Assembly: GCA_951406725.2 (NCBI GenBank)
Contig: OX597827.1
Span: forward strand, 11,408,001-11,472,000
Direction of reading: 5' to 3'
Source of the DNA: Octopus vulgaris
Taxonomy: Eukaryota
DNA: 64,000 nt
Under the pieces are notes generated by a model. It was not told the DNA's origin, searched no databases, and worked only from the letters and a program-made list of their open reading frames with translations. Positions 21,141 to 45,272 of the stretch are shown here, piece after piece; the stretch's first letter is position 1, and every line of letters begins with the position of its first letter. Both the position numbers and the translations under genes were made by a program.

Positions 21141-21900
21141 ATGGCTGTGTGGTAAGAAGCTTGCTTCCCAATCACATGGTACCAGGTTCAGTCCCACTGC
21201 ATGGCACCTTGGGCAAGTGTTTCCAACTCTAGCTTCAAGCCAACCAAAGCATTGTATGCGGATTTGGTAGATGGAAACTGAAAAGAAACCCATCGTATAT
21301 ATATATATATATATATATAAAATCAAAATGAGGGTGAAAAATTGGACATTAATTTGATAACATCAATTTTAACACCAGTGGTCTAGCATATAAAAAAACT
21401 GGGATTCAGTAAATAGTAGTTCATACATAAATATAAGTGGGAATTTTTTTAACCATTATGTAGAAACATTTATGCTAGAAGATCCATTAAGAATTTAGCA
21501 CACCAGAAACGTAAGCTCGCTTACATTTCTGGTGTGCTAAATTTTCTGGAGAACAATTCTTAGTGGTTGAGACCATAGCGGATTTTCTTCTAGCATAAGT
21601 GTTTCTAGATAGTGGTTAAAAAATTCCCTCTTATATTTATGTATGAAATATATATATATATACACACACACATATGTATTTGTGTCTGTGTTTGCCCCTC
21701 TACCATCTCATGACAACCGATGTTAGTGTGTTTATGTCCCCGTAACTTAGCAGTTTGGCAAAATAGACTGGTAGAATAAGTACTAGGCTTACAGAGAAAA
21801 AGTTCTAGGGTCGATTTCTTTGACTAAAAAAAAAGCCCTTTAAGGTGATGCTCCAGCATGGCCACAGTCAAATGATGGAATCAAGTAAAAGAATAAAAGA
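21141..21900 (+). mobile_element. SINE family A interrupted by a fold-back element in its TA tract
   Basis: Head 21141-21296; tail 21680-21900. Confidence 0.8.
21320..21647. mobile_element. Asymmetric fold-back (palindromic) element in (TA)n
   Basis: Outer arms 21420-21486/21580-21647, inner hairpin 21492-21543, unpaired flank 21320-21419. Confidence 0.8.
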
Positions 21901-22077
21901 ATTTTCATACTTGTACCCATCAACATGAGATCAGTTAAGAGAAAATATGCAAAGCTGTCCACATAAGTGTGAAAATGAAATTTGCTTTGGGGGTTCAAAC
22001 CCAGGTCCAAAATTTTATAACAAACAAGGTTGATTTTCTTTCAATCTTAATATGAAAACGAACACAGGTATAATAAT

Positions 22078-22625
22078 GGCTTCAAATTTTAGCACAAGGC
22101 CAGTAATTTCAAGGCAGTAGATAAGTCAATTATATTGACCCCAGTGTTCAACTGGTATTTATTTTATTGATGCCAAAAGGCATGTAAGGCAGAGTCAGCC
22201 TTGGCAGAATTTGAACTCAGAATGTAAAGATGCTACTAAGTATTTTGTCCATTGTGCTAACTATTCTGCCACCTCACCACCTTACAAGCACAGGTATAAT
22301 AATAATAAAAATGATTATTATAATATTTGTACATCAATCAATTCAGGTAAATCCAATAATCTTTTCTACTCTAGGCACAAGGCCTGAAATTTTGGGGCAG
22401 AGGGCCAGTTGATTAGATCGAACCCAGTACACAACTGGTGCTTAATTTATTGACCCCAAGAGGATGAAAGACAAAGTTGCCCTCGGCGGAATTTGAACTC
22501 AGAACGTAAAGACAGATGAAATACCACTAAGCATTTCACCCAACATGCTAACGTTTCTGCCAGCTCACCGTCTTATAAAGGATGAAAGGCAAAGTCAACC
22601 TCAGTGGAATTTGAACTCAGAATAT
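22078..22625 (-). mobile_element. Tandem SINE family B copies
   Basis: gcacaaggcc...gaccccag...gatgaaag(g/a)caaagt...tttgaactcagaa...ctgccagctcacc. Confidence 0.75.
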
Positions 22626-22633
22626 TAACATAG

Positions 22634-42554: not shown

Positions 42555-43325
42555 AATAGCTGTGTGGTAAGAAGTCTGCCTCCCAACTAAACGGTTCTGG
42601 TTTCAGTTCCACTATGTGCCACCTTGAGCAGGTGTCTTCCACTATAACTTCAGGCTGACCAAAAGCCTTGTGAATTGATTTGGTAGACAGAAACTGAAAG
42701 AAACAGCTTGAAGACAGTGAGCTGGCAGAAGCGTTAGCACACTGGGTGAAATGCTTAGCAGTATTTCATCTGCCGTTACATTCTGAGTTCAAATTCCGGC
42801 AAGGTCAACTTTGCCTTTCATCCTTTCGGGGTCGATTAAATAAGTACCAGTTACACACTGGAATCGATATAATCGACTTAATCTGTCTTAATTTGTCTGT
42901 CCTTGTTTGCCCTCTCTGTGTTTAGCCCCTTGTGGGTAGTAAAGAAATAGGTATTTCATTTACCATTACATTCTGAGTTCATATTTCGCCTAGGTCGACT
43001 TTGCCTTTCATCCTTACGGGGTCGATAAATAAAGTACCAGTTATGCACTGGGGTCGATGTAATCGACTTAATCCCTTTGTCTGTCCTTGTTTGCCCCCTC
43101 TATGTTTAGCCCCTTGTGGGCAATAAAGAAATAAGGAACTGAAAGAAACATGTCATATATATGTGTGTGGGAACCAATACCCAAGATTTAACAGCTTGGC
43201 AGAAAGATATCATACTTTAAAAAAAAACTGTACCAGGGGCAATTCATTCAACTAAGAAATTCTTCATAGTAGTGTCCCAGCATGGGCCCTGTTTAATGAC
43301 TGAAGCAAGTAAACGATAACAGATA
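42555..43325 (+). mobile_element. Old SINE family A interrupted by SINE family B with duplicated 3' module (42716-43134)
   Basis: aactgaaagaaaca flanks the insert on both sides (42692-42705, 43137-43150). Internal duplication as at 15885. Confidence 0.8.
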
Positions 43326-44589
43326 CCTTGCAAAGGCAGAGAAATCTATTGTTTTCACCATTATATAGTTGAATGGGTGCTAAAATACTTTAGTGAGTGA
43401 AAGTAATAACAACAACAACAACAACAACAACAACAACAACAACAACAACAACAACAACAATAATGATAACAATTGATAATAATAAATTAAAAATCAGGTA
43501 ATTAAAATTGCTGTTGCAATCATAAGAAGAAAACCTAAGCCTCAGAGAGAGTAATGTTAATCAAATATGGTCAATGCAAAGGGATGACAACTCTGGAATT
43601 CTAATTAATGGAAAATTAAAATTATGCATGCAGTATAGGGGTGGGGGGCATGATAATGTTACCTTGAGGACAAATATTAATTAAATCTGAATTTTCTTCA
43701 GTAATTATTATAACATATATATGTATGTGTGTATATATATATATATATATATATATATATATATATATATGTATATATATATATATATATATATATATAT
43801 ATATATATATATATATATATATATATATATATATATATATATATATATATATATATATATATATATATATATATATATATATATATAAATATATATATAC
43901 ACACACACACACATATATGTATATACATATGTGTGTGTATGTGTGTTTAGAAAAACTAGGTCAATTTTAGAACAGTTAGTTAATTTCAAATTTTAAATTT
44001 ACAGCACAAAAACACAAGGTGATAATTGGAAGTTCAGTTAATGCTTAAATGATAATTGTGACACACAGACACACATACACAAGCATTCACTCACACATGT
44101 ACATGCACTCACACACAAGCACGTACACACACACACACACTCACACACACACACACTCATATTTTAGAGCGGTGAGTTAATTTCAAATTTCAAACTCGCA
44201 GCACTAAAACACAATGTGATAATCAAAATTTTAATTAATGGTTTAAGTAACAATCGAGGCACACTCTTACAAATGCATACACACATACAAAACACAGATA
44301 TAAACATACACCTCTAACATTGTTATTATTCATACATAGTCACTGACACCAGCATCACCAAAATCCGTTAACTTTATTCTGGTTGATAAATTGCTTATCG
44401 CACAAATCTGATCTTTGCTCTAACATCTGTGATTCTCTCTCAACACATGTATCATCTCCGAGTACTGTCTCATCAATAACCACACCTAAATACACACACA
44501 TACACACACACACACACAACATATTCTTCAATGCATTTTCAACATAGTCTTATCAGGGATCATTTAAGTCATTAAATATTTAATTTATT

Positions 44590-45272
44590 CTTTTATTCTT
44601 TTAGTCTTTTGTTCTTTTCAGTCATTTGGCTGCGGCCATGCTGGAGCACTGCGTTTAATAAAGTGAGTCGATCCCAGGAATTCTTTGTAATCCTAGTACT
44701 TATTTTATCAGTCTCTTTTGCCAAACTGCAAAGTTGTAGGGACGTAAGCACACAAACATCAGTTGTCAAGTAATATTGGGGTGACAAACATATATGTATA
44801 TATATATATATATATATATATATATATATTACGGAGATGTACTTGCATAGCAAGTGACCTGATCTGAGATTGTGTGCTGGAATGAAAACAATTGCAGTGT
44901 GGAAATTGTTTATAAGCCATTTAAGAAACACACAAAACCGTTAGATTCACTTCAACATTTAAATATAATTTGTCAAAATATTTTCGTTTCTTTGAGACCG
45001 CGACCTGTTCACTGACAAAATTCTATGCAGCACAGAATTTTATCATTGAACAAGTTGTGGTCTCAAAGTCACGAAAATATTTTGACAAATTAAATTTAAA
45101 TGTTGAAGTGAATCTAACGGTTTTCGTGTGTTTCTTAAATGGCTTCTAAACACCTTCCACACTGCAATTGTTTATATATATATATATATATATATATATG
45201 CCAAGGTGCCATGCAGTGGCACTGAACTCAGAACTATGTGGTTGGTAAGCAAGCTACTTACCACACAGCCAC
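44590..45272 (-). mobile_element. SINE family A interrupted by a long fold-back element
   Basis: Tail 44590-44790; head 45200-45272. Confidence 0.75.
44830..45173. mobile_element. Asymmetric fold-back element (~140-bp arms) in (TA)n
   Basis: Arms 44886-45028/45030-45173 and unpaired flank 44830-44885. A single-arm copy lies at 54874-55030. Confidence 0.85.

Follow-up and report, generated by a model that had tools for sequence, protein, structure and literature searches.

Three of the six asymmetric palindromes in a 64,000-nucleotide stretch of Octopus vulgaris DNA (contig OX597827.1; hereafter the window) carry hammerhead ribozymes that read outward from the palindrome centre. We hold it somewhat more probable than the opposite, at roughly 55%, that these three (E3, E4 and E6), and perhaps E1 and E2, are ORF-less products of endonuclease-bearing PLEs, made by twin priming, with the palindrome remade at each insertion. 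The original prediction had called all six minimal PLE products rather than MITEs. For E3, E4 and E6, their hammerheads, repeated flank and varying junctions speak for it; for E1 and E2 a PLE origin is unproven, and for E5 it is not supported. Outward hammerhead arms, a single tail, TA targets and copy-specific junctions are all observed; twin priming is an inference.

The architecture itself is already known. In EN+ PLE insertions an inverted pLTR lies head to head with its partner, a tail often stands at one end, the inverted junction forms a palindrome and microsatellites serve as targets (PMC3846280, PMC8557442); the head-to-head polarity is likewise published (PMC3846280, PMC8557442, PMC4209133), and (TA)n targeting and the one-sided tail are published PLE features. 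The octopus elements differ from published EN+ PLE insertions in having no ORF and no direct pLTR, and in their tails of 56–72 nt as against 30–40 nt. The available text of PMC3846280 and PMC8557442 contains neither a count of tail pairing nor a fixed 5' limit; the look-alike loci described below go beyond it in both respects, and in their fixed outer ends, target duplications, ragged centres and private variants common to both arms.

Geometry and hammerheads of the six palindromes

All six palindromes lie where they had been predicted, measure 189–344 nt in total and have an unpaired flank on one side only, of 100, 79, 64, 72, 36 and 56 nt in E1 to E6. TA or TACA tracts flank every one of them, as had been claimed; on a given side, the chance of a (TA)5+ tract near a random unmasked base is 0.002 within 3 nt and 0.108 within 100 nt. 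Arm identity ranges from 0.68 to 0.94, and the surrounding TA tracts mask any target-site duplication. Within the window, none of the six has a direct tandem copy and none was tied to an RT/GIY-YIG ORF, the frames of at least 90 aa over the elements being repeat-derived. Further long inverted pairs, at 7869, 32016 and 42009, proved to be copies of one common dispersed repeat in opposite orientation. Pairwise comparison of arm plus flank across all six gave no significant likeness. The description of the palindromes as unrelated is nevertheless not quite accurate: the flanks of E1 and E2 are weakly alike, with a score reached by 33 of 5000 shuffles and by none of 911 window tiles, in one of 30 flank comparisons.

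Two independent solo pLTR fragments inserted in opposite orientation into one TA tract, or an assembly artefact, could mimic this geometry. TA-bounded solo hammerhead fragments are indeed common in the window (46500, 49687, 60638, 61102), and those at 60638 and 61102 form a spaced head-to-head pair. However, none of the six centres contains a TA tract, the arms differ by 6–30%, and the centre of E3 is crossed by a locus-depth contig with 0 differences (X1 record 1), which already contradicts this reading for E3. We regard this explanation as very improbable.

A relaxed hammerhead descriptor matched 5 times in the 48,070 unmasked bases, whereas 60 shuffles yielded 0.03 matches each on average. 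The cores previously proposed at 26406 and 27195/27248 are real, whereas those at 25194 and 27442 fail; one match, in E6 (−45012), had been overlooked. At 25194 there is a core-like heptamer with neither GAAA nor helices behind it; we likewise rejected core-like heptamers at 25283, 26406 (minus strand), 26550, 27448 and 21546, where GAAA or helices are missing. The site at 27442 lacks helices, and 30 contigs of organism C carry different letters there. By descriptor and core inspection, no hammerhead was found in E1, E2 or E5. Folded in isolation, the hammerheads show no extra stability over shuffles (z −0.2, 1.2, −0.6). Among the Rfam matches listed (150 of 261) there is no hammerhead, nor in the 6 rows for E3; among those listed, the palindromes score below threshold on miRNA hairpin models.

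Wherever a hammerhead is present, that is in E3, E4 and E6, it reads outward from the centre, as had been predicted. The further rule that the flanked arm points at its flank turns out to be a tautology, since arms that read outward must point to any flank beside them. The centre precedes the core by 11.5–12.5 nt in E3 and E4 and by 17 nt in E6.

Copies of the elements and their junctions

The palindrome of E3 (26301–26496) consists of two pLTR arms head to head (98 + 98 nt, identity 0.80, centre 26398/26399). Its type I hammerhead lies on the plus strand at 26406–26465, with the core at 26410 and cleavage after 26461. Other copies carry 26411 C>T (12 and 26 contigs), 26417 A>G (14 and 24) and 26437 T>C (56 and 58), variants that restore U4, G10.1 and one helix II pair. 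The tail (26497–26560, plus strand) is part of the element and contains a hairpin at 26506–26529 (fold z −3.2). A separate contig of 1131 nt aligns without gaps to 26422–26557 with 23 differences, spanning the arm into the flank, and 1 contig skips 26365–26423, so that the internal structure is not fixed across copies of E3.

E4 has its tail at the left (27091–27162, minus strand, hairpin 27155–27129), followed by a palindrome of identity 0.94 (27163–27317, centre 27240/27241). Both arms carry minimal hammerheads, the tailed arm on the minus strand at 27195–27232 (core −27228, with a U4C core) and the tail-less arm on the plus strand at 27248–27285 (core +27252). The tail is heavily repeated in the genome: contig depth over 27093–27136, which is summed over contigs and is not a copy number, reaches 746,076 (X1) and 597,964 (X13), compared to 0.49 and 3.2 at 26609–26652.

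Joints in the E4 family have at least 13 distinct starts (27129–27208), and 12 of these 13 end at 27236–27247; the figures come from short contigs and from a best-supported subset, which comprises the best 15 of the 43 joints and the best 12 of the 21 between-letter rows. Depth declines toward the centre, and 5 raw reads stop at 27154, within TA. Joints, depth profile and read ends all indicate 5' truncation with fixed 3' ends. Some copies have a tailed arm that lacks centre-side sequence present in the tail-less arm. The joints at 27176 and 27188 look like later deletions inside palindromes, and the E4 joints as a whole could also have that origin. The expectation that the centre varies between copies while the tail end stays fixed is supported for E4, with its at least 13 junctions; the centre of E5, which other copies share, looks fixed. 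No empty site was seen, and the raw reads, a thin sample of 29 and 20, gave no joint either. A tail-hairpin motif of our own, unpublished and defined after the fact, matches twice, in the flanks of E3 and E4, against 0.17 per shuffle.

In E6, the flank (44830–44885, minus strand) is followed by a palindrome of identity 0.91 (44886–45173, centre ~45029). A minimal hammerhead occupies 44969–45019 on the minus strand (core −45012), with a 7-bp helix I and a palindromic helix III; its core has G3-C8 in place of C3-G8. The other arm bears a decayed mate hammerhead with U3 (core +45046). A second, single-armed copy of the family (54871–55010, plus strand) starts at the E6 centre, keeps G3 and C8 and repeats the first ~15 bases of the E6 flank. 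Judged by these two copies, the E6 family may, as a tentative side result, carry a natural G3-C8 hammerhead core. The natural core covariation reported in the literature, as far as its available text goes, is U3-A8, whereas G3-C8 is mentioned there only as a laboratory double mutant.

MITEs are short, palindromic, non-coding and flanked by TA, and the six elements could be fixed palindromes of this kind with host DNA as the flank; the TA on both sides would then presumably be a Tc1/mariner-type duplication. E5 (27344–27532) fits this description plausibly. Its palindrome (27380–27531) has 39-bp outer repeats around a non-palindromic middle, identity falling from 0.97 in the outer half to 0.45 in the inner half; its middle and centre are common to 30 contigs of other copies, with an X13 loose end before 27465. 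The centre thus looks fixed, and a fresh inversion is unlikely, as far as the sequence indicates. For E1 and E2, in which, as in E5, no hammerhead was found, a MITE-like nature is possible. E1 (21320–21647) consists of a palindrome at 21420–21647, whose left arm lacks ~33 nt in two gaps, and a 100-nt flank; E2 (25104–25335) has its palindrome at 25104–25256 and a 79-nt flank that pairs over 10 nt with its own arm, a pairing matched by 2 of 200 shuffles. The mutual likeness of the E1 and E2 flanks counts against host DNA. In E3 and E4 the flank recurs in other copies, which extend 64 and 72 nt past the repeat on one side and so do not have symmetric ends; this contradicts the alternative that the flank is unrelated host DNA. 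In contrast to MITEs, E3, E4 and E6 have asymmetric ends, varying centres and ribozymes, and the E6 family has a single-armed member. For these three a MITE-like origin is unlikely, and we consider it distinctly improbable as a general account.

Look-alike families in metagenome contigs

Host DNA in metagenome contigs provided a look-alike set of 120 loci at 108 sites, of which 98 were filed in two families, A and B. The loci belong to families of another animal and were found with a pattern that was partly drawn from E4 and required two cores 8–38 nt apart; because of this spacing, deeper truncations are missing from the set. We set aside 12 duplicate loci, 10 unassigned loci (mostly chance-like) and sites cut by contig ends, while one chance match (L098) is still counted among the 68 sites of family A. 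The same paired-core pattern had no match in viral contigs.

Exactly one tailed and one tail-less arm were present at 55 of the 59 readable sites; a stricter parser gave 40 of 42, and a recount 56 of 59. Among the exceptions inspected, L091 shows no tail, L039 has a partly deleted one and L017 mirrors into its own flanks, as an assembly artefact might; the tail calls at L083 and L035 proved false on inspection. A single target duplication of 12–19 bp brackets both arms at 28 of 33 non-repeat sites, against 28 of 2000 mismatched pairs, which is not expected of two independently inserted fragments. The predicted combination of a pLTR plus tail with an inverted, tail-less pLTR is also borne out in these unrelated families, together with target duplications.

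The outer ends are fixed in both families, at 72 and 138 nt from the core in family A and at 64 and 132–133 nt in family B. The centres are ragged, with 38 distinct ones in the 68 sites of family A and 26 in the 30 of family B, and never cross a limit 10–12 nt before the ribozyme core. Extra letters stand at 37 of 56 junctions, and neither arm is preferentially trimmed (15 vs 22 of 37, p 0.32). Exact ends with ragged middles suggest that each half was primed separately on host DNA.

Twin priming has a rival that shares the PLE origin, in which the inverted arm arises by fold-back, a cDNA or antisense RNA priming itself at a short palindromic tip. Self-priming has been argued for (Arkhipova et al. 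2013, PMC3846280), the centres often are short palindromes, and one member of a neighbouring family carries a mirror stub of 8 bp at the 5' end (60837–60854). Private variants are common to both arms more often than expected (13 and 7 vs 1.0 and 1.3), an observation that fits twin priming on one RNA and is also compatible with fold-back or gene conversion, and no mixing of subfamilies B1 and B2 occurs in 21 loci, as fold-back would have it. Yet under fold-back the centre should be exact and the far end ragged, the reverse of what we observe, and the exact stop at the tail-less site requires an extra reason. Further, the E4 copies whose tailed arm lacks its partner's centre-side sequence show partners that could not have been copied from that arm. 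Twin priming fits better because the outer ends are exact and the centres ragged; the stereotyped fold-back step originally proposed is, on these grounds and for the shorter tailed arms of some E4 copies, the weaker of the two mechanisms, and we consider it rather unlikely.

A whole-arm profile built from the metagenome loci matches E4 at 27232–27129 (E 1.6e-4), partly by construction. For the tails, a tail-only HMM found no match between E3 or E4 and the metagenome families, a covariance model gave E = 0.95 for E4 with E3 absent, and the E4 tail motif had no match in metagenome or viral contigs.

A proposed twin-priming mechanism and related elements

Under twin priming, the 5' end of the element RNA would lie 10–17 nt ahead of the hammerhead core. 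The RT-endonuclease would cut an AT-rich target once on each strand, with ~15 bp between the nicks, and each nick would prime at a different internal site of one and the same RNA, the first at the tail-less start site and the second at the tail end. Synthesis of either cDNA would continue as far as the 5' end of that RNA; the tailed cDNA would displace its partner on the way, and at times it would stall. Microhomology or templated end-joining would then link the two free ends, such that the palindrome would form afresh at each insertion. Poseidon PAc cuts and extends both strands in vitro, and its two internal start sites mark the limits of the tail; a dimer is predicted (Frangieh et al. 2024, PMC11167929). 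The available text of that study makes no use of the two sites to explain inverted pLTRs, and 'inverted' occurs there once, for a blocking group.

More speculatively, and with somewhat less confidence than an even chance would warrant, the inverted pLTR may be a footprint necessarily left by twin priming on one RNA, whose smallest product would be an asymmetric palindrome of 200–350 bp. One step would then explain the one-sided tail, the head-to-head polarity and the ragged junction. The origin of tandem and inverted PLE structures has been named as an open question (PMC8557442). ORF-free two-arm insertions give countable rules (one tail, exact outer ends, a ~15-bp duplication, a hard 5' limit and a ragged join) that can be checked in the existing in vitro system. 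In practice, annotation will probably assign such palindromes to MITEs or microRNA hairpins when they are retroelement stumps.

Among known PLEs, E4 is most like the Hydra clade, to judge from its sequence. Members of this clade insert into (TA)n and carry a canonical hammerhead near the 3' end, and TA targets and hammerheads are found here too; in one member, Penelope-13_HM, an inverted copy is attached (Craig et al. 2021, PMC8557442). At the protein level, RWK, DKT and CxCX5C motifs and the lack of CCHH define the clade. The supplement of Craig et al. contains none of four short motifs taken from E1, E2, E5 and E6, and none of E1 to E6 resembles the 3' ends compared, those of Hydra-1_Obim and octopus Naiad. 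By eye, E4 equals Hydra-2_aMil in helix I, helix III and the cleavage base and differs from it in its U4C core and 2-bp helix II; metagenome family B, also by eye, matches the 3' end of Hydra-2_Amil.

Published hammerheads share with ours a short helix I, a palindromic helix III and an extra base before helix II. Where they occur in pairs, these are described on opposite strands 100–700 bp apart, compared to 20–35 nt here. Animal non-LTR retrozymes (PMC7229834, bioRxiv 10.64898/2026.07.22.740005) are, like our elements, short non-coding hammerhead units related to pLTRs, but they form tandem head-to-tail arrays, whereas E3, E4 and E6 are single head-to-head pairs.

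Palindromes and their flanks

Self-alignment of the window, which is AT-rich, consists of simple repeats for a quarter of its length, holds 96 TA tracts and has dispersed repeats resembling those of an octopus genome, recovered all six predicted palindromes with a flank (36–100 nt) on one side: E1 (21320-21647), E2 (25104-25335), E3 (26301-26560), E4 (27091-27317), E5 (27344-27532) and E6 (44830-45173), each bounded by TA or TACA tracts. The palindromes are real, and their architecture is already known for Penelope-like elements (PLEs), for which an inverted 5′-truncated copy, a one-sided tail and a (TA)n bias (PMC8557442), head-to-head polarity with a self-priming proposal (PMC3846280) and opposite-strand hammerhead pairs (PMC4209133) have been described. 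The six differ in kind. The arms match up to the palindrome centre in E3, E4 and E6 (identity 0.80, 0.94 and 0.91), the left arm of E1 contains two gaps, and E5 has 39 bp outer repeats (identity 0.97) with an inner half at only 0.45. Inverted pairs at 7869-8208, 32016-32587 and 42009-42702 consist of oppositely oriented members of an abundant dispersed repeat, present over a dozen times in the window.

Copies of the window elements were sought in contigs from public sequencing runs and in collection scans, the run-contig comparison spanning 26301-27600 (E3, E4, E5). The original prediction that the flanks are element sequence rather than host DNA held for E3 and E4, whose flanks are repeated in other contigs. 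Over the E4 flank, summed contig depth, which is not a copy number but nonetheless gives a large contrast, was 746,076 and 597,964 in runs X1 and X13, compared with 0.49 and 3.2 for a unique bin nearby; locus-level contigs at 26301-27600 had depths of 27–53. A separate contig aligns without a gap from the E3 arm through the entire flank, showing 23 differences, and a second E6 copy extends about 15 nt into the E6 flank. The palindromes had been called unrelated, which is not strictly true of the E1 and E2 flanks: these are weakly alike (their score is reached by 33 of 5000 shuffles and 0 of 911 tiles, in one of 30 comparisons) and possibly represent a second, ribozyme-less PLE-type end.

The E1 (21320-21419) and E2 (25257-25335) flanks each end in an imperfect hairpin, and each pairs 9–10 nt with its own arm, using different letters. 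Between E3 and E4, a repeated segment of high contig depth (26697-26916) has a loose end before 26765 common to 166 and 189 contigs, and so is probably the terminus of a different repeat family.

Hammerhead cores and polarity

A hammerhead descriptor (paired 3-8 core, GAAA, palindromic helix III, helix I of at least 4 bp) gave five matches across 48,070 unmasked bases, compared with 0.03 per shuffle (60 shuffles): one in E3 (core 26410, +), one in each arm of E4 (27252, +; 27228, −), one in E6 (45012, −) and one clean hammerhead in a solo TA-bounded fragment (49687-49868, core 49804, −). Those of E3, E4 and E6 are ribozymes predicted from sequence. Cores had been proposed at 26406 (E3) and 27195/27248 (E4), where we recover them, and at 25194 and 27442, where the remainder of the motif is absent; a search of E1 found no hammerhead. 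The arms read outward from the centre in E3, E4 and E6, the three of six palindromes in which polarity can be assigned. The proposed further rule, that the flank-side arm reads toward the flank, adds nothing, because it follows from arms reading outward.

Among the 40 of 229 rows listed, E3 copies under two species labels have the canonical U4, G at 10.1 and a restored helix II pair. E4 shares helix I, helix III and the cleavage base with Hydra-2_aMil (Craig et al. supplement). In the E6 core, G3-C8 replaces the canonical C3-G8 and the opposite arm has U3; a second copy of the family at 54871 keeps both G3 and C8. The natural covariant described is U3-A8 (PMC4209133; PMC3088659) and C3G/G8C is a laboratory rescue (PMC11167929); our literature searches, judged by titles, identified no published natural G3-C8 core.

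E3, E4 and E6 are very probably PLE elements; for E1 and E2 the balance tips slightly towards this assignment, and for E5 it is doubtful. No link between a PLE ORF and the palindromes was found.

Another hammerhead unit of about 200 nt is present in three copies (46500-46714, +; 60638-60853, −; 61102-61303, +), with common 5′ and 3′ ends and each between TA tracts. Two of these lie head to head with a gap between them, and the 5′ end of one copy carries an 8-bp mirror stub. TA-bounded fragments at 48495-48705 and 7242-7690 carry, by eye, decayed hammerhead-like motifs; 48611-48593 gives a weak profile match (E 3.5).

Centres, ends and the origin of the inverted arm

The centre had been predicted to vary between copies, as it does in E4 and in one E3 contig, which skips 26365-26423. 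Among the E4 joints listed (15 of 43, and 12 of 21 between-letter rows), there are 13 distinct points of departure from the tailed arm (27129-27208), and 12 of these 13 lead back in at the centre (27236-27247); two joints resemble later deletions. E5 has the same middle across its geometric centre in 30 contigs of one sampled organism, pointing to a fixed structure. Raw reads on 26301-27600 (29 and 20) were too few to reveal empty sites.

Scanning metagenome contigs for a head-to-head pair of Hydra-type cores 8–38 nt apart yielded 120 loci, which reduce to 108 distinct sites. Two families take in 98 of the sites, L098 among them being a chance match, and 10 were assigned to neither. These look-alike loci belong to families other than the window's, and the counts describe another animal's families, picked by the selecting pattern. 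By eye, family B matches the 3′ end of Hydra-2_Amil as published. A tailed arm was paired with a tail-less one at 55 of 59 sites with both arms readable (40/42 and 56/59 under other parsers). The positions of the outer ends vary by no more than a base or two. A direct duplication of 12–19 bp, lengths slightly high as 3-nt offsets and one mismatch were tolerated, surrounds the whole unit including the tail at 28 of 33 non-repeat sites; among 2000 mismatched pairs, 28 show one. Inspection found no shared sequence beyond any look-alike tail. Centres differ, with 38 strings in 68 sites of one family and 26 in 30 of the other; of 56 junctions, 19 are overlapping or blunt and 37 have extra letters.

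Priming twice, with a single repair join between the products, would be expected to leave exact outer ends, a duplication and an irregular middle. A Poseidon protein was studied in vitro, where both strands are cut and extended and two internal start sites bound the tail (PMC11167929). We infer, with a probability of roughly 0.55 and less firmly than element identity, that each target nick would prime at one of two internal sites on the same RNA, that both cDNAs would extend to the RNA 5′ end, and that their free ends would then be joined. The fold-back step that the palindromes were originally held to record appears rather unlikely as the source of the inverted arm: it predicts an exact centre, whereas observed centres differ, and it requires a separate stop signal, yet it accounts for palindromic tips and for private variants common to both arms of a site (13 against 1.0 expected at 35 loci; 7 against 1.3 at 10 loci).

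By inspection, look-alike arms end 10–12 nt before the core, though the pattern permitted more. Trimming is no more frequent on one arm than on the other (15 against 22, p 0.32). The window centres precede the core by 11.5–12.5 nt in E3 and E4 and by 17 nt in E6, the same geometry as in the look-alikes. By eye, a TATA-like run ends 20 nt before the 10–12-nt arm limit in the consensus published for Hydra-2_Amil, a hint of a transcription start; the Penelope element of D. virilis, however, is described as TATA-less (PMC2377424). Homology of tails across species rests on an after-the-fact motif and was not upheld by profile tests. At five sites (L005, L006, L008, L019, L114) the junctions contain short stretches copied again from where the arm begins, resembling repeated priming or templated repair.

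The minimal products yield a precise model, amenable to testing, of an open step in PLE transposition. In the literature searched, judged by titles and with most subscription journals outside coverage, we found no earlier proposal of twin priming for PLE inversions. Further background is in PMC8969392, a 2026 retrozyme preprint and PMC13282606, whose supplements may contain the window's families.

Other features of the window

An element at 59158-59595 is bounded by 38-bp terminal inverted repeats and contains a run of a telomere-like hexamer. Reading frames at 10167-10562 (−) and 11296-11628 (−), which adjoin AAT-type repeats, resemble the terminal part of R4/Dong-type non-LTR elements that encodes a restriction-like endonuclease.
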